Notes: a model not told the origin generated them from the sequence alone. A stretch of DNA of 64,000 bases from Aggregatilineales bacterium (GCA_965215855.1 CBDCER010000002.1:324367-388366), one strand, 5' to 3'. Positions 7,633 through 33,308 are shown, counted from the first letter of the stretch. A program made the numbers and translations.

Positions 7633-8160
7633 TTGAACAGACGATTTGGGCCAATTTTCCTCTTCGCCTCAATTTTTCTGGGCGGGTTGATGGTTTGGTT
7701 GGGGCGCGTAGATAGCCTAGATTTGGGGCCACCGGCTCCACGCACTGGCGCACCCGCGCCCGATTTCACGCTGGTTGACCTGGAAGGCAACACGCACAAG
7801 CTCTCGGAATATGTGGGGCAGGCGGTTATCATCAACTTCTGGTCGGTGTATTGTGTGCCGTGTCGTGCCGAAATGCCGGATTTGCAACAGGTTTATGAGG
7901 AATATCAGGATCAGGGGTTGGTATTGCTGGCAGTTAACCAGAATGAACCACCAAATGAGGTGGATGGCTTTATTGACGACTATGACCTAACATTCCCCAT
8001 TCTGTATGACACAGGTTTTGAGGTCAGCCGCGACTATGAAATCGAGTCATTCCCAACTACATATTTTGTTGACCGACGGGGGCGCGTCCGTCATGTCACG
8101 TTCACCGGCCCGATGAGCGCGAGCTTTGTCGAAAGCCTAGTTTTGGATTTGCTGAAGTAG
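7633..8160 (+). CDS. TlpA/ResA-like thiol:disulfide oxidoreductase (thioredoxin fold)
   Basis: 175 aa with a TTG start and AAGGAA at 7621-7626. It has an N-terminal membrane anchor and a CxxC motif in FWSVYCVPCRAEMP. Confidence 0.8.
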   Translation: MNRRFGPIFLFASIFLGGLMVWLGRVDSLDLGPPAPRTGAPAPDFTLVDLEGNTHKLSEYVGQAVIINFWSVYCVPCRAEMPDLQQVYEEYQDQGLVLLAVNQNEPPNEVDGFIDDYDLTFPILYDTGFEVSRDYEIESFPTTYFVDRRGRVRHVTFTGPMSASFVESLVLDLLK

Positions 8161-8163
8161 CCT

Positions 8164-8889
8164 ATGTATCGCACACTGCATATCGGTCCGGCAGCCTTGC
8201 AAACTGCCTTTGTTCTCTATCTGCTAGGTTTCTATCTGGCAACAGAGTTTGCCACACGCAATGCAAAACGCCATCACACCAACGGCAACACGATCCAAAA
8301 TGCCATGCTCGTGGGACTGGTCGGTGGATTAGTAGGCGCACGGTTGGTCTTTGCCGTGCTACATTGGGCAGCATATCAGGATGATTTGAGCGCATGGTTT
8401 TCGATTCGACCACAGGGATTGAATGTCGTCGGTGGGGTCATCGTTGGTAGCGCAGTGATGCTGGCATTTGGGCGCTGGCGGCGGGTTGCGCTGCGAGATT
8501 TTCTGGAAATCATCACGCCGGGTGTCGGCATTCTGATGGTCGTGCTGCCGCTGGCGTTTCTAGCAGAAGGCAGTGTCTTCGGCAAGGCCAGCGAGTTGCC
8601 CTGGGCCATTGAGTTGTGGGGTCTGAAGCGCCATCCCACGCAAGTTTACGCGGCCATTGGAAGTGCCGTGACATTCGGCATCTGGTGGCGTTATCGAGAC
8701 CGTCTGGATAATCATGAATTTCTGGTCATCGTCACAGGGAACGCGCTGACGTGGATGCTGGTAGGCTTCTTGTTGGCCGAACCTGCCCTGGCATTGGAGA
8801 GCTATCGCCTGGTGCAGGTGATGGCATGGGCGGTGCTGGTCGTTGTGGCCTTCGCCTGGAATCTGTCGCAACAAACCATGCAATCATGA
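8164..8889 (+). CDS. prolipoprotein diacylglyceryl transferase (Lgt)-like membrane protein
   Basis: 241 aa and polytopic. It contains the Lgt-like RHPTQVYAAIG motif. It is shorter than canonical Lgt, so the assignment is tentative. Confidence 0.5.
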   Translation: MYRTLHIGPAALQTAFVLYLLGFYLATEFATRNAKRHHTNGNTIQNAMLVGLVGGLVGARLVFAVLHWAAYQDDLSAWFSIRPQGLNVVGGVIVGSAVMLAFGRWRRVALRDFLEIITPGVGILMVVLPLAFLAEGSVFGKASELPWAIELWGLKRHPTQVYAAIGSAVTFGIWWRYRDRLDNHEFLVIVTGNALTWMLVGFLLAEPALALESYRLVQVMAWAVLVVVAFAWNLSQQTMQS

Positions 8890-10152
8890 CATGGTGGAAA
8901 CCGGCAACGTTTTCAGGGCATGGGGCACAATCAATGCCGACGGTGTGGAGGTTCCCAACAGAATTTCGGTCATGGCGACAGCGGTTGGCATATCGGGTGC
9001 GTGGAGCAGACCGGTATCTTTCAAAAAGCCGGGTTTCTGGACGCCGACCAACACCATACGATAACGTTGCTGCAATTGAGCAATCATGAAGGCGCGTTGT
9101 TCCCCTGGGCGGCTGTCGTTTGTCAATAAATGCGAAATCAGATCAGGCGTCGGGCCAAAGCGACGCAGCAAATCGAGTGTGTTTTGCTCGCCCTGCCCCT
9201 GACCGCCCTTTTCTGGCAGCGGAGCCGGCACAAGAATCACGCCACCATCGCGGATAACAGGATGGGCACTGAGACCGATATAAGTCGCGGCTCGCGATGC
9301 CTGATAGAGATTGGCGTCTTTAGGTGCGCCTACGCCTGCGATCACGACATCATACGGTGCATTGGGAACCGGACATTCGTAGAGACAGCGGGCCTGCTTC
9401 ACCAGCTTATCATGAACGTCATCGGGCGCGCCTGTCGCCAGATGTAGGATTTCCCCATCATTGTCCAACACAACGTTGATTGCATATTCGTGGCCGATTT
9501 TTGCGCCTGCTGCCTGCAAGAATCGCTGGAACGGGTTGCCTTCTACAGCACCGAGGCGTGTACCAGGCAGGTTGAGGAAAGCAGGGCTATGCGTGTGGGC
9601 GATGGTACCTGGGCCACCACAACCAATGACAGCCGTTTTGGTCCCGCCGCTATATCCGGCATACTGGTGCGGCTCGACAACACCGACCGTGATGATGGTC
9701 GCATCCAAGAGGAGGGGATTGATCTCAATAGGAACGCCATTAATCATGCCCAAGCTGAGGACTGTCGTCGGATCATGATCTACGACCTCGAAATTACCCA
9801 CCAACCAATCGCCCAGTTTGGCACGTTTTTCGGCGTCAGTGGAGCGACGGTGCATCCCTATGGCACACAATAGTTTTATGGATACACCAGTGGGTTGCAA
9901 TATACGGATAATCGGCTCCAGCAAAGTTTGGTCGGGAGAAGCACGAGTAGCGTCTGTGAAAATGGCGACCAACGGACGGCGCATATCCACTATCTCGGCA
10001 ATGTGGTGGGCGAAAGCCTCCAACTGTGCCCGAATGTCATCAGCCGTCAAGGGTTGAGCTGTCTGGAATTGCTCGACAACATCCACCAAATCCCAGGTAG
10101 AAGGTAGATCGAAGGACAGGTTGCCGTCCCCGAATGGCACGCAATAAGGCAT
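8884..10152 (-). CDS. LarA-like (DUF2088) nickel-pincer-cofactor-dependent racemase family protein
   Basis: ~422 aa. LarA-like motifs are CAIGMHR and VEPHQYAGYSGGTKTAV. I use the ATG at 10152; the ORF track starts one codon earlier at a TTG. The ATG overlaps the LysR stop (TGATG). Confidence 0.75.
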   Translation of the reverse strand: MPYCVPFGDGNLSFDLPSTWDLVDVVEQFQTAQPLTADDIRAQLEAFAHHIAEIVDMRRPLVAIFTDATRASPDQTLLEPIIRILQPTGVSIKLLCAIGMHRRSTDAEKRAKLGDWLVGNFEVVDHDPTTVLSLGMINGVPIEINPLLLDATIITVGVVEPHQYAGYSGGTKTAVIGCGGPGTIAHTHSPAFLNLPGTRLGAVEGNPFQRFLQAAGAKIGHEYAINVVLDNDGEILHLATGAPDDVHDKLVKQARCLYECPVPNAPYDVVIAGVGAPKDANLYQASRAATYIGLSAHPVIRDGGVILVPAPLPEKGGQGQGEQNTLDLLRRFGPTPDLISHLLTNDSRPGEQRAFMIAQLQQRYRMVLVGVQKPGFLKDTGLLHAPDMPTAVAMTEILLGTSTPSALIVPHALKTLPVSTMS

Positions 10153-22501: not shown

Positions 22502-23911
22502 ATGCGGCATCTGCTCACACTAACGATCTTCGTCGGTTTCCTCGCCCTCTATTTGTTCTCGGTTGGCATCCCCTTCTATAGCAGCGATGGGCTAGTGATG
22601 TATGAAACGGCGCGGGCGATTGCGTTTGACGGTCGCTTGGACATACCTCACCATGAGTTGCCGCAGGTTATCGAAGGCCGAGAAGGGCGCTATTACAGCA
22701 AATATGACCCCGGTATGTCGCTGCTGGCGGCCCCAGTGGTGGCTTATGCCGATCAGGTAGCCCAGGGGGCCAGTGCCAATCGCTATGCTGTCGGGGCGAT
22801 ATTCGTGATATTGGTTCCTGCGGCAAGCATGGCACTCGGCGTTGCCTCTACCGCTGTCATCGCCCGTCGTTTCTATACTCCACGCCTGTCACTCCTGATA
22901 GCAATAGTCGCCGGAGCAGGGACGATGGCCTGGCCTTATGGTCGTCTGTTCTTCAGCGAGGCTGTGCTGACTGGTGCATTATGCCTGTCGATTGCGGCGC
23001 TGACCGCCCAGCAGCCGCGTGTAGGGCTGGCCTCGGTGGCACTGGGTATCGGCATTTTGACACGAGCCAGCATGATGATTTATCTGCCAGGGTTGGTCTA
23101 TTTGATCTGGCAGCAGCACTCGCCTCCGGATCGGAGGCGACATTTGGTCTGGCTGATTATTGGCGCGGTGGTGGCGATTGGGGTGCTGCTGTGGCATAAC
23201 TGGCTACGATTTGGAACGCTCTTTAGCACAGGCTATCAGGGTGAAACCTTTGATACATGGCCCTGGGTCGGAATATTTGGTCTGCTGTTCAGCCCTGGCA
23301 AAAGTATTTTCATCTATGCGCCGCCACTGATACTGAGCGTCCTGCTCTGGCGACGGTTTCGGCGCCGGACGCCGATCCTCGCTAACGCCGTGTTGCTCAT
23401 GACCGCTACCGCATTCGTATATTATGGCACTTGGTGGGCCTGGCACGGCGGTTGGGTCTGGGGACCGCGTTTTCTTGTGCCGTTGATGCCGCTGTGGTGT
23501 TTAGCCTGGGGCGAAGTACCATCGCGCATTGGGTGGCGTCTCGCGGCGGCAATGATCCTTTTGGTGGGAATCGGCGTACAGTTGATAGGAACCTTCAGCG
23601 ACATCAACCCAACCTATGCGGAGGCTTTTGCGGGTGCAACAGACCCCGATGACAGGGCGCGTTATGCTATGGTACACTATCACCTCGACAAAACGCCGCT
23701 GGTGATGGCGTTGAAACGTCGTCAATGGGAAGAACAAGCCATCTATAACCTGCAAAGCACCGACCTGACCGAAGCGTGGGTGTATGGTATCCCTCGTGTC
23801 GTGCATTGGATGTTGGCGCTGAGTGCAGGATTTATGGGCTGGATAATAGTAACAGGACGGGAACCGGCATGGCATCTGAACCGAAATTCAACTACGGCGG
23901 ACAGGCAGTAA
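22502..23911 (+). CDS. polytopic membrane protein, GT-C-type glycosyltransferase-like (PMT/ArnT-like)
   Basis: 469 aa with more than 10 hydrophobic segments. The N-terminal loop YSSDGLVMYETARAIA is reminiscent of GT-C Asp/Glu loops. TAAATG junction with the upstream gene. Confidence 0.5.
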   Translation: MRHLLTLTIFVGFLALYLFSVGIPFYSSDGLVMYETARAIAFDGRLDIPHHELPQVIEGREGRYYSKYDPGMSLLAAPVVAYADQVAQGASANRYAVGAIFVILVPAASMALGVASTAVIARRFYTPRLSLLIAIVAGAGTMAWPYGRLFFSEAVLTGALCLSIAALTAQQPRVGLASVALGIGILTRASMMIYLPGLVYLIWQQHSPPDRRRHLVWLIIGAVVAIGVLLWHNWLRFGTLFSTGYQGETFDTWPWVGIFGLLFSPGKSIFIYAPPLILSVLLWRRFRRRTPILANAVLLMTATAFVYYGTWWAWHGGWVWGPRFLVPLMPLWCLAWGEVPSRIGWRLAAAMILLVGIGVQLIGTFSDINPTYAEAFAGATDPDDRARYAMVHYHLDKTPLVMALKRRQWEEQAIYNLQSTDLTEAWVYGIPRVVHWMLALSAGFMGWIIVTGREPAWHLNRNSTTADRQ

Positions 23912-25008
23912 TGGAAGGCGTGATGATGCGCGGCGTACATCTGGCCGCCATCGCCGTCCGTGATCCACAAGGCAACATCGTTATTCACGAAGAATCTCTT
24001 AATGCTGCACTTTATCGAGGACGTATCAGCCGTATTCCCTTCTTGCGAGGGCTGATTGGCCTATGGGATGCACTGGTGTTGGGAACACGCGCCCTGATCT
24101 GGAGCGCCAACATTGCCCTGCAAGAAGAAGAGGAAGAAAAACCTGTCGAAGAACCAATAGAGCAGGCCGAAAAAAGCGGCTGGGTTAGCCGGTTACCTTT
24201 CGTCGGCAAAACAATAAGCCTGATGAACCTGAGCGCCCGTGCCTTACTCGGCGGTGCAAATCTAGTCGCCAGCGATGGCGGCGGCGGCAGCAGCAAAAGC
24301 AATGACAATGCGTTTTCGGATATTGCGGTAGCTGGTGCGGTCATGTTGTCGCTGTCGATGGGCATCGGCTTATTTTTCGTATTGCCCGCCACGGCCTCCA
24401 ATTGGATTCGCGATGCACTGAATATCGAAAGTCGTCTGGCAGTGGATACGATTGAGGGCATCGTCAAATTGTCGATCTTCATCGGCTATATCGCGGCCAT
24501 CGGTCTGATGAACGATGTAAAGCGATTGTTTGGCTATCATGGCGCGGAACACAAGACGATCAATGCTTACGAAGCCGGTAGCGAACTCACGCCAGCCGAG
24601 GTGCAACAACACTCCATCGAGCATCCACGTTGTGGGACCGCATTCCTGCTGAATGTAATCGTCCTCAGTATTCTGGTACATGCTATCACTGGACGTTCAG
24701 ACAACATCTTTTTGCTGGCCTTATCACGGGTGGCGGTCATCCCGATTATTGCGGGAATAGCCTACGAGATGATCCGGTTCACTGCCCGTCATGCCAATCA
24801 TCCTGTCATCAAAGCCATCATCATCCCGAATCTGTTGATGCAACGCCTGACCACACGCCAGCCCGATGACTCGATGGTCGAGGTCGCGGTGGCCGCGCTG
24901 GAGCGTGTATTGATGGCCGAAGCAGCAGTTCGGCGCGGCGAAACAGTCACGCCCCAAGACGAAATTATCATCGCGCGTGTACCGGCTACGGCTGAGGGCA
25001 CCGGTTAG
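23869..25008 (+). CDS. DUF1385 family membrane protein
   Basis: Begins MASEPKFNYGGQAVMEGVMMRG, the DUF1385 hallmark, and contains YHGAEHK and HPRCGT motifs. I prefer the internal ATG at 23869 over 23776. It carries an acidic and Gly-rich insertion (EEEEEKPVEEP ... DGGGGSS). Confidence 0.8.
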   Translation: MASEPKFNYGGQAVMEGVMMRGVHLAAIAVRDPQGNIVIHEESLNAALYRGRISRIPFLRGLIGLWDALVLGTRALIWSANIALQEEEEEKPVEEPIEQAEKSGWVSRLPFVGKTISLMNLSARALLGGANLVASDGGGGSSKSNDNAFSDIAVAGAVMLSLSMGIGLFFVLPATASNWIRDALNIESRLAVDTIEGIVKLSIFIGYIAAIGLMNDVKRLFGYHGAEHKTINAYEAGSELTPAEVQQHSIEHPRCGTAFLLNVIVLSILVHAITGRSDNIFLLALSRVAVIPIIAGIAYEMIRFTARHANHPVIKAIIIPNLLMQRLTTRQPDDSMVEVAVAALERVLMAEAAVRRGETVTPQDEIIIARVPATAEGTG

Positions 25009-25016
25009 GAGTAGAA

Positions 25017-25574
25017 ATGCTGGGAAATAACCTGCTACAAGGCAAGCTGATCTATCTGGATGCGGTGCGACGCGAGGATGTAAAATCGCTCGGTCAATGG
25101 TTCGATGATATGGAGTTTCTGGCACTATTGTTTCCTGGCGTAGCATTTCCACAAACCGAGGAAGACGAGATGGACTGGTATGAACGTCAGCGCAAAGGGA
25201 AGGATTATGTATTTGCTATCCGCACCCGCGAACAGAACAATCTAATTGGTACAACCAGCCTAATGCGTATTGATTGGCGCAGTCGTCATTCCGAATTTGG
25301 TATCGCCATCGGTGATAAAAATTATTGGGGTAAGGGCTTTGGCACAGACGCTACACGCCGCATGTTAGGCTATGCGTTCTTGGAACTAAATTTGAATCGT
25401 GTGGAATTGCAGGTCTATGACTTTAACAAACGCGCCATTAGAAGCTATGAAAAAGTGGGATTTACGCACGAGGGCGCACGTCGTCAAGCTATTTTCCGCG
25501 ATGGTCAATATCACGATATTCATGTTATGTCGATTTTGCGCGACGAGTGGCTGGCAGAGCGAGAGGTGGATTGA
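25017..25574 (+). CDS. GNAT N-acetyltransferase (RimJ/RimL-like)
   Basis: 185 aa with YWGKGFGTDATRRML ... RAIRSYEKVGF. Confidence 0.85.
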   Translation: MLGNNLLQGKLIYLDAVRREDVKSLGQWFDDMEFLALLFPGVAFPQTEEDEMDWYERQRKGKDYVFAIRTREQNNLIGTTSLMRIDWRSRHSEFGIAIGDKNYWGKGFGTDATRRMLGYAFLELNLNRVELQVYDFNKRAIRSYEKVGFTHEGARRQAIFRDGQYHDIHVMSILRDEWLAEREVD

Positions 25575-26116
25575 TGCCCAGCGACGAGTTGCTGCATGGT
25601 GAGCTGGTTGTCTTGGATGCAATTGTCCGTGAGGATTTGCAGCGCATTGCCGACTGGTTCTCGGACGAAGAAACCTTGCGCCTGACATGGCATTCGGCCA
25701 TGATGCCGATCACCGTGGATGATGAAACCGAGCGCTTTGAGCAAGCCCGGAAAAGCAAACGATATGACTTCGCAATCCGGACACTCGATAGCCGCACGCT
25801 TATTGGTGTTTGCCAACTGACGCATTTCGACCACCGCAGCCAATCTGCCATGTTCGGCATCACGGTGGGTGATCAAAATTATTGGGGCAAAGGTTTTGGG
25901 ACAGACGCTACACGTCGCATCCTAGACCATGCGTTTCTGGAATTGAATCTGCATCGCGTCGAGCTGGGCGTGTGGAGCTATAACCAGCGGGCAGTCAAAT
26001 CGTACGAAAAAGTCGGCTTTCGGCACGAAGTTACCCAACGACAAGCAATTGTCCGCGACGGACAGTATCACGACATTCATATTATGGGAATTTTACGGGA
26101 CGAGTGGCTTAAATAA
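25574..26116 (+). CDS. GNAT N-acetyltransferase (tandem paralogue)
   Basis: The ATG at 25574 overlaps the upstream stop (TGATG). The C-terminal half is nearly colinear with the upstream paralogue (YWGKGFGTDATRRIL ... RAVKSYEKVGF ... DGQYHDIHIMGILRDEWL). Confidence 0.85.
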   Translation: MPSDELLHGELVVLDAIVREDLQRIADWFSDEETLRLTWHSAMMPITVDDETERFEQARKSKRYDFAIRTLDSRTLIGVCQLTHFDHRSQSAMFGITVGDQNYWGKGFGTDATRRILDHAFLELNLHRVELGVWSYNQRAVKSYEKVGFRHEVTQRQAIVRDGQYHDIHIMGILRDEWLK

Positions 26117-26118
26117 CA

Positions 26119-28161
26119 ATGTTTGACATCTTACAAGAACATCCGCGCCGCACGGCAATCATCATGTTGTCGGTTGCGGCGATTTCAATTGTCTATCTGT
26201 TGATCGTAGTGGCACACACGTTGGACGTGAATGACGGCAACATCGGCGCGTTGCTGGACGACACCTGGATTCATGTCCGGTTTGCGGAACACATCAGCCA
26301 GGGAGAAGGTCTCAGCTATAACGACGGCGAATTGACGGCGGGAGCGACTAGCCCGCTGTGGGTATTGCTGCTGGCAATCCCCTTCGCGCTATTCGATCCA
26401 GGCATCATGCAACAAGTAGATATTGCCATTATCATGAGCGCCATCGGGCATGTAGTCTCGGCGCTGGCGATTACGGGCTTCGGATGGTGGGCCACGCGCC
26501 AGGCATGGGTCGGCTGGGCAGCAGGTGTACTCACAGCCCTGACTGGCCGCTATATTTGGATGGGCCTGACTGGCATGGAAATTACGACGTTCACCACATT
26601 CTGCATCTTGAGCGTCTGGAGTCATATGCACGATGTTCGTGAAAGACGAACCTTCTCGCCACGAACGGGTATCATGCTAGCGCTCGCCAGTCTGGGGCGT
26701 CCTGAAGCAGCTTTGTTGGCAGCATTGATCGGACTTGATGCCTTCATCTTGATCCCCTTGCGCGAACACAAAACACCCGAAGCCATCAGCGCCGGCATCA
26801 AACGTGGCTGGCGGGGTGTGGTGGTTTTCCTACTACTGGCGGGCACATATCCGTTCGCCAACTGGGTCATCAGTGGCTATCCGGTCCCCAATACGTTCCG
26901 CGCCAAGTCACAATTAGGCAATGAAGCCCCTGAACTGCCGCGGGCCTTGTTATGGATGACCAATGTCGATCATGGGCCGTTGCTAATCTTGCTGGCGGGA
27001 ATTGGCACGAGCTATATTCTGTGGCGGGCACGCCAGCGAGGTGGCTATAGCATGGTCTGGGCACTGTGGGGGCCGCTGTTCATCCTCGGTGTGCTGTTTC
27101 TGGGCGCGGAACGCTATGTGGTCAATCACTCGCGCTATGTTGCGCCCTCCATCCCCTTCAACGCACTAGCGGCGGTTGTGGGTGTGTGGGCGTTGACGCA
27201 GATACAATGGCCGCGCATCCAGACAAAAATGATGCAATATGCGCTTCCCGTCACCCTGGTGGGATTGATGGGAATTATCACGGTAGAGCGCGGCTGGCCC
27301 AATCGTGAGCAGGTCGCCAACGATGTCAAACAGATGCGTGCCATGCACATCCAGGCCGGATTCTGGTTTGCGGAGAATAGCGAGCCGGATGACGCGATTG
27401 CCTTGAATGATGTGGGTGCGATGATTCACATTTCAGATCGGCGCGTGATTGACTTGGAGGGGCTGGTCTATCCCAAAGTTATTGACTACACCCGTGATAC
27501 ACTCGATCACACTTGCGAACATGACCTGCAACTGGCACGAATCATGCTGGAAGACCCGCCGCGCTATATCGCAGTATTTCCGTGGTTCTATGAATGTTTG
27601 ACCGCCTGGCCGGACGCTTTGCAACCCTATTTCATCTTCGAGATCCGTGGGCCGACGGTGCTGGCCGGTGGTGAGACGGTGGTCTATATTCCGGTGTGGG
27701 AAAATTGGCCGATGCTGGCTACTGTACCATCTGATGTGATACCTGTCGGTGCATACTTCGAAGACAGGATTGAATTGGCAGGCTATCAGGCACAGTTGGT
27801 AGATGGCGGGCTGGAAGTCACGCTCTGGTGGCGGGCGCATGGGCAACCCGCTGATAACCATCACATTTTTGTGCATGTGGTGGATGACAGCGGAACACTG
27901 GCCGAAGTTGGCGAGGGCATCACATTGCAACATGACAGTGCCCCCCAACAGCAAGGCGGTCATGCGTTTGAAATGGCCTGGTGGCGCGATGGCGACATTA
28001 TCCGCGACGTTCACCTGATCCAATGGGAAGATCATTCCGTATTCCAGCAGGAAGGCCTGAGCCTGAATGTGGGCGTTTATCGCTATCCACAGGGGATCCG
28101 CCTGCAGGTACGCGGTGGTGGCGATTTCGTGAATCTGCCGTTGGCGTCAGTTACCGAATAG
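26119..28161 (+). CDS. large polytopic membrane protein, GT-C-like, with soluble C-terminal domain
   Basis: 680 aa. About 400 aa of TM helices are followed by a ~250-aa non-hydrophobic domain. The N-terminal loop is DDTWIHVRFAEHI. Confidence 0.45.
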   Translation: MFDILQEHPRRTAIIMLSVAAISIVYLLIVVAHTLDVNDGNIGALLDDTWIHVRFAEHISQGEGLSYNDGELTAGATSPLWVLLLAIPFALFDPGIMQQVDIAIIMSAIGHVVSALAITGFGWWATRQAWVGWAAGVLTALTGRYIWMGLTGMEITTFTTFCILSVWSHMHDVRERRTFSPRTGIMLALASLGRPEAALLAALIGLDAFILIPLREHKTPEAISAGIKRGWRGVVVFLLLAGTYPFANWVISGYPVPNTFRAKSQLGNEAPELPRALLWMTNVDHGPLLILLAGIGTSYILWRARQRGGYSMVWALWGPLFILGVLFLGAERYVVNHSRYVAPSIPFNALAAVVGVWALTQIQWPRIQTKMMQYALPVTLVGLMGIITVERGWPNREQVANDVKQMRAMHIQAGFWFAENSEPDDAIALNDVGAMIHISDRRVIDLEGLVYPKVIDYTRDTLDHTCEHDLQLARIMLEDPPRYIAVFPWFYECLTAWPDALQPYFIFEIRGPTVLAGGETVVYIPVWENWPMLATVPSDVIPVGAYFEDRIELAGYQAQLVDGGLEVTLWWRAHGQPADNHHIFVHVVDDSGTLAEVGEGITLQHDSAPQQQGGHAFEMAWWRDGDIIRDVHLIQWEDHSVFQQEGLSLNVGVYRYPQGIRLQVRGGGDFVNLPLASVTE

Positions 28162-28212: not shown

Positions 28213-28614
28213 TCAGCCCGTCGGCGGTTGCACCAGGACATGCGTATTGCCATACAAATCGGTGAATACGGCCTGCACGCCCCAGGGAACCGCTTCTGGC
28301 TCAGTTGTGAATTCAACGCCTTTGGCCTTCAATTCAGCAACCGTCTGGCGACAATCATCAGTGGCGAACACAAAACCCGGCCCTTTGCCTATTTGGGCTG
28401 CCCGCTCTGCGACAGTACCGGCCGATCCCCATCCGGCGGGTTGCAACACAATCTCCATGTCAGGATGATTCTTGGGGCCAACGGTCACCCACCGTGCGCC
28501 CTCACCCATCGGCTGATCGGTGCGTTTCTCAAATCCCAATGTTTCTGTGTAGTAGTTCAGCGCCTCTTCTTGATCGCGGACCAGGATTGAAGCATGGGTT
28601 AGTTTGGTTATCAT
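28213..28614 (-). CDS. VOC (glyoxalase/bleomycin-resistance/dioxygenase) family protein
   Basis: Begins MITKLTHASILVRDQEEALNYYTETLGF. The internal ATG at 28614 has an AGGA RBS and is preferred over 28635. Confidence 0.8.
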   Translation of the reverse strand: MITKLTHASILVRDQEEALNYYTETLGFEKRTDQPMGEGARWVTVGPKNHPDMEIVLQPAGWGSAGTVAERAAQIGKGPGFVFATDDCRQTVAELKAKGVEFTTEPEAVPWGVQAVFTDLYGNTHVLVQPPTG

Positions 28615-28654
28615 GGTGATTATCCTACAATGCAATATTAGAACGATTGTTCTG

Positions 28655-28775: not shown

Positions 28776-30062
28776 TCATTCGCCCAGTTCAGTCAGCATC
28801 GTGTCCAGTTGGGGAATGTAGTCTTCTAACAGCAAGGCTTTGAAGCGAGCACGAGTATAAGCAATTTCCTTGCGGATAATGTCTATATCATCGGCTTCGG
28901 TACGTTTAAGTTGAATCGTATGAATTCTTATCAGCGATTCAGCAGCTTGCTTCAGTGTATAAGCATCCTGCAACTCGCCAGCCATCGTCAACGCCTGTCG
29001 GATGCGTTCGGTGGCAGCAGTGGCATCACCATTTCGCAGCAAAACCAACTGTCCTAATGTGATCTGCGACACGGCAAAGTTGCGGCGACGTCCCAGGCGA
29101 GAGAACATCTCACTGCTGAGACGGACATGTTCCTCGGCAGCATCAAATTTGCTCAGACGTCCTTCCAAACGCCCCAAATCATGATAAACGACCGCCAGCT
29201 CGGCTGTAGATCGTAGTGGCAACAGATCTTCCACCGCATCATTCAGACGACGTTCAGCCTCGGCCAGAAGACGCTTTTTCTCAACTTTATTAGGAGCGGA
29301 TTGGGCACGCACCTGATCAGCATAGGCCATCTGTCGTGACACCTGGGCACGCAAAGCCCACAGCCCCATCGTTTCGCAGGTCTGGAAGGCATCGTCTAAC
29401 AGCGTCGCGGCCCGTTCCAAATCGTTCTGGTGAATCAATGCCCCCGCCAAATCAACCGAAACACGGGTTCGCGTTTCAACAGCCCCCGAACTCAACGCCA
29501 CCAATACACGTTCAAACTGGGGGATGGCTGCCGCGAATTCACCACGACTGAGATAGGCACGCCCCATTTCATAGACGGCTGTGGCTTCAAGATCTACCGG
29601 ACCATCGCCATCGAGTAAGGACAATGCTTGCTCATAGCTGATTATGGCAGCTTCCATCTGACCACGGGCCAATAAATGCTGCCCATAGGCCAACAACGCA
29701 TGAATAAAATCGACCCGCAATTCATCCCGATTGGCGGCATAGAATTCGAGCGCCTGCCGAAACAGCCCCTCAGCCTCGTGTCGCATTCCACCTACTTCAT
29801 CCAACGTAGCTGCCATCTCGATGACAACCTTGGCATAGTGCGGGGTATGTTCATCGAGACGATAGTAGAGGCTTTCCAAATATTCCAAAAGTTCTTGAGC
29901 AAGCCCAGCCTCGCGCATCATTGATGCATGGCGCAGAATCAAATCCGCGACCTTCAGCGGATCAACAGTGCTGACGGGGCGCAGTTGTCGTCGGACAATG
30001 GCTCGGATGTTATTCAAGGTGGCCTGTTGTTCGGTGGTAAACAAAGTTGGAGTGTCCGCCAT
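28776..30062 (-). CDS. stand-alone TPR-repeat protein coupled to the STAND NTPase
   Basis: 428 aa, all alpha-helical with TPR_12-like units (e.g. YEMGRAYLSRGEFAAAIPQFERVL, YHDLGRLEGRLSKFDAAEEHV). Its ATG overlaps the upstream stop (TGATG, 30060-30064). Confidence 0.8.
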   Translation of the reverse strand: MADTPTLFTTEQQATLNNIRAIVRRQLRPVSTVDPLKVADLILRHASMMREAGLAQELLEYLESLYYRLDEHTPHYAKVVIEMAATLDEVGGMRHEAEGLFRQALEFYAANRDELRVDFIHALLAYGQHLLARGQMEAAIISYEQALSLLDGDGPVDLEATAVYEMGRAYLSRGEFAAAIPQFERVLVALSSGAVETRTRVSVDLAGALIHQNDLERAATLLDDAFQTCETMGLWALRAQVSRQMAYADQVRAQSAPNKVEKKRLLAEAERRLNDAVEDLLPLRSTAELAVVYHDLGRLEGRLSKFDAAEEHVRLSSEMFSRLGRRRNFAVSQITLGQLVLLRNGDATAATERIRQALTMAGELQDAYTLKQAAESLIRIHTIQLKRTEADDIDIIRKEIAYTRARFKALLLEDYIPQLDTMLTELGE

Positions 30063-32218
30063 CAGGGAGTTATCCTTAGCATATACTCAATCAGGGATTG
30101 GTCGATTTCATCCTGTTCTAAATCGCTCAGGGACAGGGTTTGACGCAAGAAATAGCGGATAGCCGCCGGAATATGATACAGTCGTCCGACACGGCCCAGT
30201 AATCCACGTTGCACCAACACACGCAACTGATCCTGTGTCGATTCGCCACCGATCACCACTGCCATTTCACGAGTAAAGCTATCTGGCAACCCTTTCAAAC
30301 GCCGCACTAAATTGAGCGCGTCTTCGGGCAATGTCTCCAGTTGGTCGCGCATATAAATATCATAGGCATCAGCCACGTCGCCAGTTAATTCCGCCAGGTC
30401 AGTCAATGTGGTGGACAATCCCTGGCGGCGCACCATCTGGGTCCCGGCATGGATCAACCAGGGCATTGCACCAGTATGTTCCACAAAAGCTGCCACTGCA
30501 TCATCATCAGGAAATTCGGATTGCAAATCATAATCGGCAATGAGTTGCAACGCCAGCCGTTCAGCCTCATCAGGCAATAACGTTTCCACCGTATTTTCTT
30601 CCGTGCCGCTGGTGTAGGTGATGGGCTGCACTGGACCGTAGGCCGTCAACAAGAAGCGTGTGCCACCAATGTTATCCAGGCGCGACACAAAATCGGCCAA
30701 CTCCCCAATCTCCAATGGATCGCCCCAAGCATCAACCTGATCCAACACCACCAACACCTGCCGTTCGCGCAGAATATCGCGCAGTGTGGCCCAATTGGTA
30801 TCCGCTGGCAGTTCCAACAAAGCCAGCAATTGCTCCACCACATCTTCCGACTTGGTGCGGTCGCTGACATTCATCCACAACACGCCATCAGGATAGCGCC
30901 AACCAAAGCGGGCTGCATATTCCGCCGCCAGCCAGCTTTTACCCGCACCACCCGACCCATAAATCGCGATTTGCCGGAAACTGGTTGAGGCGATTTCCTG
31001 GCTGAGTTCACTGAGCGGGGCACGTTGTCCAATAAAATCGGCATACTGTGGCACATTTCGCATGGGTGGCAGGCCAGGATCAATCAAAGAACGGCTGGCC
31101 CGCATAGTTTCAGGTGGAAAATCCAGGCGTAGGTTGTCTAATTCAGGCTTAAACCACAATTGATAGCACGCGACGTCGTCGGGGAATGTTTCCCGCAAAG
31201 CAGACGTAGCGGCATCAAACGCATCGCGCACGCTTTGTTGAGTGGCGATCCCACCATAGAAATGACGGGCGAAATACGCTGCACCACTAGCCGACGGTTG
31301 TTTGCTGGTTCCGATGAGTGCTTTAACCACTGTTTCCTCTAACAAAAAGTGGGCAGTTGGCTCACTGATGGGACTATCCATCACAACCAACTGCACGGCG
31401 CTATCGCGGAACAAATTGATAAAGGGTTGTGGGTAAAGCGGCGCTTCATGGCCCCATTCATCCTCCAAGATAAATACATCGTTCGCGCTGTGGCACACCA
31501 AATGCACGATAGGATATTCATTGCCCGCTGCCAGCGTATTCACCAGATGATCTGCTATGGGTGGATTTAGGCGGGTCAGGGCCAGTGGTACGCCTTGAGC
31601 ATGGGCAACTGCCGCCGCCAACTTTTGCCAGCCCTGAAGACCATCTAGCGCCATCTGGGGTGGAGATTCACCACCGTTACTGGCATAGGGCGCAGCAACA
31701 ACAGCCAATATTCCCAGGTAGCGACGTAGGTCGTAGGGAATGATATGGCGCATATCGTAAGGCACAACCACCCGTCCCTGCGCCACTTCGACTGGTACAT
31801 TGGAGAACGTGCTGGAAGCCGATACCACATCAGGCGTCCGGCCTGCCCACAACGCCACCAACTTCGACAGATTAAGCGTATACCGCTCATTACTGCTCAG
31901 GTCAACCCAATCCAACGTCTCCAGCGCAGGCATTACCGGAGCAAAGCGAGATACTACTGGCAAGATGATCTGATCGTTATCGCGGGCGAAATTCACCGCT
32001 TGCTGCACAACTGAAGATCCCATTGCATCAGGTGAGATCACCACCAAAACATAAGCTGCTTCTTCCAGCCCGGCCCTAGTAGCAGCATCACGGTCCGCAC
32101 CCGTGGGGATATGTTTTTCATCGAACCAGATATTCAGACCCGCTGCTTCCAAATCTTTGACCAGGCGACGAACAAAGCCTAAATCTTCGCGGGCATAACT
32201 GACAAACACATGCGACAT
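30062..32218 (-). CDS. TIR / CHAT-like / P-loop STAND NTPase multidomain protein
   Basis: 718 aa. The TIR-like N-terminus is VFVSYAREDLGFVRRLVKDLEAAGLNIWFDE. The middle region fits the CHAT pattern (IVHLVCHS, FILEDE, LVVMDSPIS, FARHFYGGI). Walker A is IYGSGGAGKSW and Walker B is VLVVLDQVD, followed by a helical C-terminal tail. Confidence 0.75.
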   Translation of the reverse strand: MSHVFVSYAREDLGFVRRLVKDLEAAGLNIWFDEKHIPTGADRDAATRAGLEEAAYVLVVISPDAMGSSVVQQAVNFARDNDQIILPVVSRFAPVMPALETLDWVDLSSNERYTLNLSKLVALWAGRTPDVVSASSTFSNVPVEVAQGRVVVPYDMRHIIPYDLRRYLGILAVVAAPYASNGGESPPQMALDGLQGWQKLAAAVAHAQGVPLALTRLNPPIADHLVNTLAAGNEYPIVHLVCHSANDVFILEDEWGHEAPLYPQPFINLFRDSAVQLVVMDSPISEPTAHFLLEETVVKALIGTSKQPSASGAAYFARHFYGGIATQQSVRDAFDAATSALRETFPDDVACYQLWFKPELDNLRLDFPPETMRASRSLIDPGLPPMRNVPQYADFIGQRAPLSELSQEIASTSFRQIAIYGSGGAGKSWLAAEYAARFGWRYPDGVLWMNVSDRTKSEDVVEQLLALLELPADTNWATLRDILRERQVLVVLDQVDAWGDPLEIGELADFVSRLDNIGGTRFLLTAYGPVQPITYTSGTEENTVETLLPDEAERLALQLIADYDLQSEFPDDDAVAAFVEHTGAMPWLIHAGTQMVRRQGLSTTLTDLAELTGDVADAYDIYMRDQLETLPEDALNLVRRLKGLPDSFTREMAVVIGGESTQDQLRVLVQRGLLGRVGRLYHIPAAIRYFLRQTLSLSDLEQDEIDQSLIEYMLRITP

Positions 32219-32361: not shown

Positions 32362-32410
32362 CCTACTATCAACACTACCACCTATTAGGGGTGGTAGTGT
32401 TGATAGTAGG
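32362..32410. repeat. perfect 21-bp inverted repeat (hairpin, 7-nt loop)
   Basis: CCTACTATCAACACTACCACC (32362-32382), loop tattagg, then GGTGGTAGTGTTGATAGTAGG (32390-32410). It lies between the SDR stop (32517) and the TIR-STAND start (32218). Confidence 0.9.
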
Positions 32411-32516: not shown

Positions 32517-33308
32517 CTACATCGTGGCCTTAATTTCGCCACCATCCACCGGAATCATTGCGCCATGAATGAAACCTGCCGCTGGTGAACATAGGAAAGC
32601 GGCTACATTGCCGAATTCCTCTGGCGTACCCATACGTTTCAGGGGGATGCTCGCGGTTCGCGTGGCACGTTCTTCCTCTAGTGTTAGATTGTTAGATTTT
32701 GCCCGGAACTCCAACAATTGATCTGTGCGAGCCGTGGCCGTCCAGCCCGGCAGAATAGCATTCACCCGAATACCTTCTGATCCCAATTCATTCGCCAGTG
32801 TCTTGACCAGTCCGGCAATGCCCGCGCGATAGGTATTGGATAACAGTAGGTTCTGGGCAGGTTGTTTGACGGTCAGGGAGGTGATGGTCAAAATCGCTGC
32901 TCGGTCCGATTGGCGGAGATAGGGCAAAGCTGTCTTAATCATCTGGACGGTACTACTCAACAGCAGATGATAGGCCGTGTCCCAATCATCTAGCACCAAA
33001 TCATCAAATTTACCAGCACGCGGGCCACCCGCATTGGTCACCAGCACATCCAGGCCACCCAATTTTTCCGCAGCCTGTTCAATCACTGCTGAAATTGTGT
33101 CGCGCCGAATGAGATCACCTGCAATAGCGTGAATGCTTCCCCCACTCTCAGCCTGAATTGCCTGAGCAGTGGCTGTCAAGGTCTGCAAATCGCGTCCGTT
33201 GATGGCGACGTGCGCCCCCTCTAAACTAAATCGGCGAGCAGTGGCGGCTCCTAAACCAGAGCGACTGGCCGCCACAAAAACCTTTGCACCTGCAAGTCCT
33301 AAATCCAT
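32517..33308 (-). CDS. short-chain dehydrogenase/reductase (SDR) family protein
   Basis: 263 aa with a Rossmann N-terminus (KVFVAASRSGLGAATA) and NAGG. In the catalytic region (NTYRAGIAGLVKTLANELG), Tyr is present. By my alignment the Lys of YxxxK reads Ile. Confidence 0.85.
   Translation of the reverse strand: MDLGLAGAKVFVAASRSGLGAATARRFSLEGAHVAINGRDLQTLTATAQAIQAESGGSIHAIAGDLIRRDTISAVIEQAAEKLGGLDVLVTNAGGPRAGKFDDLVLDDWDTAYHLLLSSTVQMIKTALPYLRQSDRAAILTITSLTVKQPAQNLLLSNTYRAGIAGLVKTLANELGSEGIRVNAILPGWTATARTDQLLEFRAKSNNLTLEEERATRTASIPLKRMGTPEEFGNVAAFLCSPAAGFIHGAMIPVDGGEIKATM

Follow-up and report, generated by a model that had tools for sequence, protein, structure and literature searches.

Good descriptions exist of caspase-like-AP-ATPase and TIR-AP-ATPase-TPR proteins from multicellular bacteria (PMC7159879, PMC8195603), and caspase/TIR-AP-ATPase-TPR proteins as a group have long been known from such bacteria (PMC7159879, PMC8195603, PMC13581612). 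In type IV Thoeris, a TIR protein makes N7-cADPR, which activates the caspase-like protease ThsE (10.1101/2024.10.24.620036). Here, we analyzed 64,000 nt of DNA from an Aggregatilineales bacterium (GCA_965215855.1, CBDCER010000002.1:324367-388366; hereafter, the window), in which two minus-strand genes between positions 28,776 and 32,218 encode a protein of 718 amino acids (aa) with TIR, CHAT/caspase-fold and STAND NTPase domains, and a separate TPR protein of 428 aa. Bacterial STAND or NLR-like proteins are usually viewed as a sensor combined with an enzymatic effector, with fast turnover in defence islands. The window pair, a bacterial relative of the NLR immune switches of plants and animals, combines an intact NTPase with TIR and CHAT-like domains that both lack catalytic residues. 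We read it as a two-subunit ATP-driven switch whose output would be independent of TIR or CHAT catalysis, probably a scaffold or adaptor, and give this reading a probability of roughly 0.45.

The larger gene (30062..32218, minus strand; stop codon 30062-30064) was assigned by open reading frame (ORF) calling, Pfam, AlphaFold and Foldseek. The smaller gene (28776..30062, minus strand) encodes the detached sensor arm, an all-TPR protein that matched Pfam TPR_12 (E=4.7e-12) and many other TPR models, including TPR_2 and TPR_MalT. The two genes are joined by a TGATG stop/start overlap (30060..30064, minus strand) within CCC TGA TGG, in which one base is common to the stop codon of the 718-aa gene and the ATG of the TPR gene. 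A preliminary description drawn from the sequence alone had proposed two minus-strand ORFs with this overlap, a separate and translationally coupled TPR gene, and the domain order TIR, CHAT-type and P-loop NTPase. The ORF call and the sequence agreed exactly with the first proposal; the second was upheld by the ORFs, the junction and the Pfam TPR models, and the third by Pfam, BLASTP, the AlphaFold model and Foldseek. The full-length AlphaFold model of the 718-aa protein (pLDDT 83.9, pTM 0.78) was matched best by Foldseek to the plant TIR-NLRs RPP1 (7dfv, E=2.8e-12) and Roq1, and also to Apaf-1, CED-4, MalT, an archaeal STAND-TPR protein and SAVED-CHAT. About 28 full-length homologues, 40-53% identical, were found among 5.8 billion clustered proteins, and a scan of one genome per GTDB species yielded 21 loci, all in metagenome-assembled genomes of Chloroflexota/Anaerolineae.

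The TIR domain (aa 1-125; 31844..32218, minus strand) matched Pfam TIR_2 (PF13676) over profile positions 1-121 of 122 (E=1.1e-22, 81.2 bits against a cut-off of 28) and was aligned by phmmer with the solved bacterial TIRs 7uwg, 8g83 and 7uxr. In the 7uxr alignment, Ala74 (codon 31997..31999, minus strand, checked) lies opposite the Glu of NWTEYEL (W-x-x-x-E motif), which we take to be the homologue of the catalytic Glu in AbTIR-type NADases. That Glu is universally required in TIR NADases, and the window TIR, with Ala74, lacks the catalytic Glu of a signal-generating TIR NADase. Across 40 TIR-clade sequences, the column holds Glu in 24, Asp in seven, Ala in three, Ile in three and Val in two. 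A disordered linker (aa 126-158; 31745..31843, minus strand) follows, with pLDDT <50 for aa 127-155 and a mean pairwise identity of 0.20.

The middle domain (aa 159-360; 31139..31744, minus strand) is a CHAT/caspase-fold pseudo-protease domain, assigned by BLASTP to the protein P0029, an AlphaFold model, Foldseek and a profile search. Pfam CHAT (PF12770) scored 13 bits with the whole protein (E=0.071) and 16.3 bits with the isolated domain, both below the cut-off of 24. The CHAT claim therefore needed independent support, and the Pfam match of 13-16 bits was rejected as sole evidence and replaced by transitive homology and fold. BLASTP aligned aa 142-555 (E=7e-28) with P0029, a 980-aa CHAT-NTPase-TPR protein with a clear Pfam CHAT match (E=9e-11) and canonical HFSGHG and VVLNAC motifs. 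A model of aa 156-396 built with 19 family sequences (pLDDT 90.6, pTM 0.88) was closest to the CHAT domain of SAVED-CHAT 8tl0 (E=1.3e-9, TM 0.62, root-mean-square deviation (rmsd) 3.4 Å), followed by gingipain, MALT1, a C11 protease, the CHAT anti-sigma factor DdvA, Csx29 and caspases. Additionally, a profile of the domain retrieved thousands of proteins from 1.84 billion representatives, with canonical CHAT-STAND-TPR proteins as the top non-family matches, and a syntenic orthologue, P0042, passed the Pfam CHAT cut-off (E=8e-12, 45.6 bits). By homology and predicted fold, the middle domain is established as a real member of the CHAT/caspase-fold clan. The earlier claim of a CHAT domain thus stands on BLASTP homology, the fold and the orthologue, and fails on the Pfam profile alone.

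In the P0029 alignment, His243 (codon 31490..31492, minus strand, checked) falls on the catalytic His of HFSGHG, Ser244 takes the place of the canonical Gly that follows it, and Pro283 (codon 31370..31372, minus strand, checked) falls on the catalytic Cys of VVLNAC. The window protein hence lacks the His-Gly ... Cys dyad of an active CHAT protease. In the TIR-clade census (n=40), the Cys was found in 0/40 sequences, the His in 5/40 and a Gly after the His in 1/40, and with a mean identity of 0.34 this is the least conserved folded domain of the protein. A conserved linker (aa 361-398; 31025..31138, minus strand) with the motif LIDxGLPPMRNVP follows, its mean pairwise identity of 0.51 being second only to that of the nucleotide-binding domain. 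The by-eye reading that the TIR Glu and the CHAT Cys had been lost while the CHAT His was kept proved right, and the exact residues are Ala74 (7uxr alignment and family census), Pro283 and His243 (P0029 alignment).

These residue states bear directly on whether the protein is still an enzyme. Activity of the TIR or CHAT-like domain might have been retained through residues outside the canonical set, such as His243 paired with an alternative nucleophile or, in the TIR pocket, some other acidic side chain. On this view, the pair would be a conventional antiviral STAND that carries effectors and has a split sensor. The retained His243, the complete TIR fold with its strong TIR_2 score, and the strong constraint on the TIR of Glu-bearing relatives (omega about 0.05; omega is the Nei-Gojobori dN/dS, computed only for locus pairs close enough to measure) would all suit such an enzyme. 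However, Ala74 occupies the position of the universally required Glu, Pro stands at the Cys site, and Ser rather than Gly follows His243. Moreover, the His243 site is conserved so rarely that selection is not maintaining it for catalysis, and the low identity of the CHAT-like domain points the same way. We therefore hold retained catalysis to be very improbable.

The nucleotide-binding domain (NBD; aa 399-546; 30581..31024, minus strand) matched Pfam NB-ARC (E=2.4e-7, 30.7 bits against a cut-off of 23.5) and AAA_22, as expected for a STAND NTPase of NB-ARC type. It contains Walker A (GSGGAGKS, 30935-30958, minus strand) and Walker B (LVVLDQ, 30737-30754, minus strand), whose residues Lys427, Asp493 and Gln494 are invariant in 40/40 TIR-clade sequences. 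With a mean pairwise identity of 0.60, the NBD is the most conserved domain. The remainder of the protein (aa 547-718; 30065..30580, minus strand) comprises helical domain 1, a winged-helix domain and a C-terminal helix, as assigned by secondary structure and Foldseek matches to the NB-ARC modules of Apaf-1, MalT and NRC, and includes a GLPL-like motif (T582/P586/W587/L588) that is invariant. The whole tripartite module of NBD, helical domain and winged-helix domain is present, the model aligning over about 350-375 columns with Apaf-1, MalT, NRC1/2 and 6mfv (rmsd 4.9-6.2 Å). Only 14 strongly conserved family columns are changed in the window protein, none of them in the NTPase motifs. The chain terminates behind the winged helix, at the point where a sensor arm would usually follow, and the sensor is not part of the same polypeptide.

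The TPR gene lies directly downstream in every TIR-bearing locus. The junctions of homologues read ATGA or TAATG or are gaps of 1-2 nt; in a few, the gap is 28-107 nt long. In P0006 and in the loci L022-L027, the TPR arm is fused to the NTPase. The N-terminal segment of the TPR protein (aa 8-60; 29883..30041, minus strand), with the motif LTxEQQAxLNNxRxVxxRQLRP, has a column identity of 0.56-0.64, among the highest in the protein; in the fused relatives this segment is continuous with the NTPase C-terminus, and the fission point lies about 10 residues upstream of the motif. The arrangement fits a simple gene fission that would have kept co-expression, through translational coupling, as well as the interface, and aa 8-60 are presumed to form the docking surface for the NTPase. 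The predicted linkage of the TPR gene in homologues accordingly holds in all TIR-bearing loci, and the fusions in P0006 and the sister clade provide Rosetta-stone confirmation.

The homologues form a series at one chromosomal slot. The outgroup proteins P0029 and P0067 have the architecture CHAT(HG...C)-NTPase-TPR. The sister clade in Anaerolineae (L022-L027; about 30 representatives at 50% identity) consists of fused CHAT-NTPase-TPR proteins of about 1030-1070 aa without TIR, in which the CHAT Cys is kept in 9/9 loci examined and the His in 6/8, while some Walker motifs are eroded. In the TIR clade (about 10 representatives, with 40 distinct sequences in the census), the CHAT Cys was lost in 40 of the 41 sequences examined. 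The exception is P0042, which has a split TPR gene, retains the Glu of the TIR together with a complete CHAT dyad (HLVAHG, LLNGC), and matches Pfam TIR_2, CHAT (8e-12) and NB-ARC; it is the transitional form, and both of its effector domains are apparently active. The majority of the TIR clade keeps the TIR Glu beside a dead CHAT, and both domains are dead in the window protein and about one third of the clade. A rough neighbor-joining tree without support values placed the window protein near P0006 (Ala, TPR fused), L009 (Asp) and P0002-4 (Glu), and suggests that the TIR Glu was replaced independently at least 3-4 times without loss of the gene.

The statement in the preliminary description that both effector domains are degenerate is thus true of the window protein and not of the family, in which 24/40 sequences keep the Glu and P0042 keeps both sites. 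For the same reasons, namely the retained Glu and the intact P0042, the window copy reads as the end state of a stepwise effector loss instead of a designed adaptor architecture. In several TIR-less fused loci that keep the CHAT dyad (among L022, L023, L025 and L027), the eroded NTPase motifs read GVGRRS at Walker A (L023) and LVLQDVD or LILEHVD at Walker B, which is the inverse of the TIR clade with its invariant NTPase and dead CHAT. Two further loci differ from this series: L029 encodes a 429-aa protein (7815-9104) whose CHAT dyad is canonical and whose NTPase is truncated, and L028 (8233-9522, 9997-10977) is disrupted, with a 429-aa piece and a TPR piece encoded separately, and is possibly a pseudogene.

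Omega was 0.05-0.11 for the TIR, 0.14-0.23 for the CHAT-like domain, 0.06-0.13 for the NBD and 0.07-0.14 for the TPR gene, compared with about 0.05 for the flanking SDR and 680-aa genes. The dN and omega of the pair were about twice those of these neighbors. In L005/L021, which share a 26-aa TIR deletion, Asp at the Glu site and a dead CHAT, omega was 0.07 for the TIR remnant and 0.03 for the NBD at dS >2. The low omega of close pairs indicates that the dead protease fold is not drifting and that doubly degenerate proteins persist under constraint.

These values are relevant to the idea that the pair is a relic in decay, that is, a former TIR-effector immune receptor whose output went with Glu74 and whose genes are inert and intact only from lack of time. 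Both catalytic residues are missing, the window TIR carries further substitutions at conserved BB-loop positions, TIR deletions of 8-26 aa in 14/40 family members point to relaxed constraint on TIR chemistry, and the dS of the window copy is saturated. On the other hand, neither the 718- nor the 428-aa ORF is disrupted, the two genes are still coupled at their junction, every NTPase motif is intact and few conserved columns are changed. Moreover, L005/L021 and L011/L020, with a dead CHAT and a truncated or altered TIR, showed omega values of 0.03-0.18 across dS >2, indicating that doubly degenerate forms have been maintained for long periods. The genes were also kept in each of the lineages in which the Glu appears to have been replaced. 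A decaying relic is in our judgment unlikely.

The neighborhood of the pair is shared among related loci. An SDR oxidoreductase gene (58-73% identical) lies upstream, with two ABC transporter genes further upstream, and genes for a 680-aa membrane protein, a GNAT acetyltransferase and a DUF1385 protein lie downstream; the window flanks (SDR, ABC transporters, GNAT, DUF1385, glyoxalase and a conserved membrane protein) are housekeeping genes. The common neighbors are present even where the pair itself is only 40-51% identical. The surroundings of the pair contain no integrase, transposase or recognised defence gene. This conserved neighborhood without mobile or defence genes indicates vertical inheritance in a stable chromosomal slot and not a defence island. 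Across loci, the pair is 31-51% identical whereas the flanks are 49-73% identical; the pair thus evolves about twice as fast as its neighbors, yet it is retained. In a comparison of core against patchy presence with the 680-aa neighbor as an anchor, metagenome contigs yielded only two loci, and the distant L032 (anchor 45% identical) had no pair within 3 kb. The pair is neither an isolated oddity nor part of a defence island, being an orthologue of a small Anaerolineae-specific family in conserved housekeeping synteny.

In most loci, the STAND gene is directly preceded by the SDR gene (window 32517-33308) on the same strand, and the look is operon-like where the spacing is <50 nt or only a DinB-family gene intervenes (L001, L005, L007, L030). 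In the TIR-less sister clade, an SDR gene adjoins L022 and L026 and lies about 2 kb away in L024. A functional link between an NAD(P)-dependent SDR enzyme and a TIR module is conceivable from this arrangement. The SDR was considered as an obligate third component and discarded as a defining part, since L010, L023, L025, L027 and L034 have none beside them. In addition, FhaA/FHA-domain, RodA/FtsW and PBP transpeptidase genes recur a few kb from the pair (flanks of L003, L007, L024 and L030), placing the slot beside a conserved cell-envelope and division cluster.

MalT and AfsR are STAND regulators, and the pair might likewise be a domesticated housekeeping regulator, a signalling ATPase outside conflict that is perhaps tied to the SDR or the nearby cell-envelope/FHA cluster. 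The synteny with core genes, the absence of mobile or defence genes nearby, the same-strand SDR directly upstream in most loci and the FhaA/FHA, RodA/FtsW and PBP genes close by in several loci all favor this reading, as does the low omega of the TPR gene, which is not the diversifying pattern expected of an antigen sensor. However, no DNA-binding or other regulatory output domain was found by Pfam or in the model, the pair diverges faster than its flanks in identity, dN and omega, and SDR adjacency is missing at the five loci named above. Furthermore, most members keep the TIR Glu, and basal members keep the protease dyad typical of conflict systems. A role purely in housekeeping therefore seems doubtful to us.

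We favor the two-subunit switch, for which the following course of events can be proposed. A single CHAT (caspase-like protease)-NB-ARC NTPase-TPR protein, vertically inherited in Anaerolineae, would have gained an N-terminal TIR; the TPR arm would then have split off into a translationally coupled gene and the protease dyad would have been lost. In several lineages, including that of the window, the catalytic Glu of the TIR would have been lost as well. In the present pair, the TPR protein may use its conserved N-terminus to dock at the winged-helix end of the NTPase, serving as both ligand sensor and autoinhibitor. Ligand binding would permit nucleotide exchange and oligomerisation by the intact P-loop module, and the clustered TIR and pseudo-CHAT domains would then work without catalysis, forming a scaffold or adaptor by which a partner encoded at another site is recruited or sequestered. 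The data establish the architecture, the homology, the residue states, the coupled split, the synteny, the evolutionary series and purifying selection in relatives; docking, ligand sensing, oligomerisation and non-catalytic output are inferred.

Several observations weigh against the switch reading. The Trp at Glu-4 that is typical of NADase TIRs is absent in all family TIRs, which makes the ancestral TIR activity itself uncertain. The BB-loop region of the window TIR (IPTGADRDAATRAG) has diverged from the family consensus IxPGxNWDAAIExG, a change that could equally reflect decay. The nearest relative of the window copy is only 51-53% identical, with saturated dS, and the constraint was seen in relatives only. 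Finally, no other TIR, CHAT or STAND gene was found within the 64-kb window, and no scaffold partner was found there.

Around the pair, the window differs from related loci in several places. The segment 33432-35834 has a lower GC content (0.45-0.48 versus about 0.53) and encodes a 401-aa protein with DUF5937 and an ArsR-type helix-turn-helix and a 392-aa S41 peptidase; these genes have no counterpart between the SDR and ABC transporter genes in related loci and are therefore probably a lineage-specific insertion. A glyoxalase/VOC-family gene (140 aa, 28213-28635) lies between the TPR and 680-aa genes and is absent there in all related loci. Two tandem GNAT acetyltransferase genes (185 and 189 aa, with a 28-nt overlap; 25017-26116) both match the same place in related loci, where a single copy is present, and look like a window-specific tandem duplication. 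The 680-aa predicted membrane protein (26119-28161), whose gene is convergent with the TPR gene in most loci, has a mean column identity of 71% with many invariant Trp, Asp, His and Arg residues, and had no Pfam or NCBIfam match; it represents an uncharacterised conserved family. The listed GTG start of the DUF1385 ORF (23776-25008) is 86 codons ahead of the Pfam domain, and translation probably begins further downstream.

Inside the 300-nt gap between the SDR and TIR genes, about 145 nt upstream of the TIR-gene ATG, positions 32362-32410 form a perfect inverted repeat of 21 bp (CCTACTATCAACACTACCACC ... GGTGGTAGTGTTGATAGTAGG) around a 7-nt loop. It is present in a single copy within the window, and no T-run follows it. 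Rfam searches of the upstream region and the repeat gave only below-threshold chance matches of the hairpin-shaped miRNA type, and a promoter and terminator scan of the upstream region gave scores no better than shuffles. The repeat could be a terminator of the SDR gene or a protein-binding palindrome.

One vertically inherited locus thus shows effector replacement (CHAT to TIR), sensor fission and the repeated loss of the remaining catalytic residue, and the NTPase, the dead protease fold and the sensor are under purifying selection throughout the series. Should the doubly dead forms prove functional, they would provide a natural case of bacterial immune enzymes turning into scaffolds, a transition that has been inferred for animal TIR adaptors and pseudo-caspases and whose intermediates are rarely seen preserved. 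A bolder and improbable version is that the pair is a domesticated NLR-like receptor, long kept as an effector-less ATP switch, in which the dead TIR and pseudo-caspase serve as assembly platforms and which, in filamentous Anaerolineae, would control a partner encoded in trans or some process of the cell; if that were true, the enzyme-to-scaffold transition could be reconstructed from intermediates preserved in one slot. The orthologue series of P0043-type (CHAT intact, no TIR), P0042, P0002-type (TIR Glu, dead CHAT) and window-type proteins is a ready-made panel on which this idea could be examined. The main interest lies in this preserved series of effector turnover and in the puzzle of an effector-less STAND switch, and less in a new defence system. 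Of the overall interpretation given earlier, the architecture, the split and the residue losses stand; a defence island, an isolated oddity, a family-wide double degeneracy and an adaptor by design are not supported.

PADLOC-DB v2 (Avs, Thoeris and others) gave no full-length system match for the 718-aa protein, only partial TIR hits of about 60-85 aa each (PDC-S66, ThsB, SAVED-TIR), and nothing significant for the TPR protein. The FxSxx-COOH system (FxsT, an NB-ARC/TPR protein, with the TIR-like FxsC) was considered as a candidate and rejected: NCBIfam NF040586 scored 43.6 bits against a cut-off of 300 and covered aa 390-497 only, and no radical-SAM or precursor peptide gene was found near the pair. 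In the literature, which was incompletely covered, no description was found of a TIR, CHAT and STAND fusion, of dead-CHAT derivatives or of a split sensor. The suggestion of an undescribed system holds insofar as no PADLOC or NCBIfam system matched, and falls insofar as the pair is a variant of the known caspase/TIR-AP-ATPase-TPR proteins.

Among more distant counterparts, the pseudo-caspase cFLIP and the MyD88-type TIRs of animals are dead folds kept under selection as interaction modules; the likeness is an analogy in mode of action only, with no specific sequence relationship to the window protein. MalT-type STAND regulators and the archaeal STAND-TPR protein (PDB 8bob, 6mfv) share the order of NBD, helical domain and winged-helix domain followed by a helical-repeat sensor (Foldseek E about 1e-9, query-normalised TM 0.31-0.32, rmsd 5.5-5.8 Å), and MalT is further resembled in the TPR_MalT match and the chromosomal, non-mobile context. 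However, the window pair has no DNA-binding output domain, and MalT has no N-terminal TIR and CHAT. Type IV Thoeris (10.1101/2024.10.24.620036; 10.64898/2025.12.03.692087), compared by domain types, likewise combines TIR with a caspase-like domain, but it consists of two separate small proteins without STAND NTPase or TPR, whereas both window domains lack catalytic residues and the ThsB models match the TIR domain only partially, with scores far under their cut-offs. By analogy with Thoeris, P0042, with both domains apparently intact, could embody a TIR-to-caspase logic in cis.

The plant TNLs RPP1 and Roq1, bacterial TIR-AP-ATPase-TPR proteins and TIR-bearing Avs have an N-terminal TIR followed by an NB-ARC module, as the window protein does, and their expected logic is oligomerisation-driven TIR activation. 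Unlike these receptors, the window protein has a 200-aa caspase-fold insert between TIR and NTPase and Ala74 in place of Glu; its sensor is a separately encoded TPR protein and not a leucine-rich repeat, and no PADLOC Avs model matched. The bacterial CHAT-AP-ATPase/NB-ARC proteins with TPR or WD40 repeats, relatives of Apaf-1, share the order CHAT, NTPase and TPR and show direct sequence homology (P0029, E=7e-28; P0067-P0098). The sister clade at the window-type locus has exactly this architecture, and from it the window pair differs in Pro283 for Cys, the extra TIR, the separate TPR gene and the housekeeping neighborhood.

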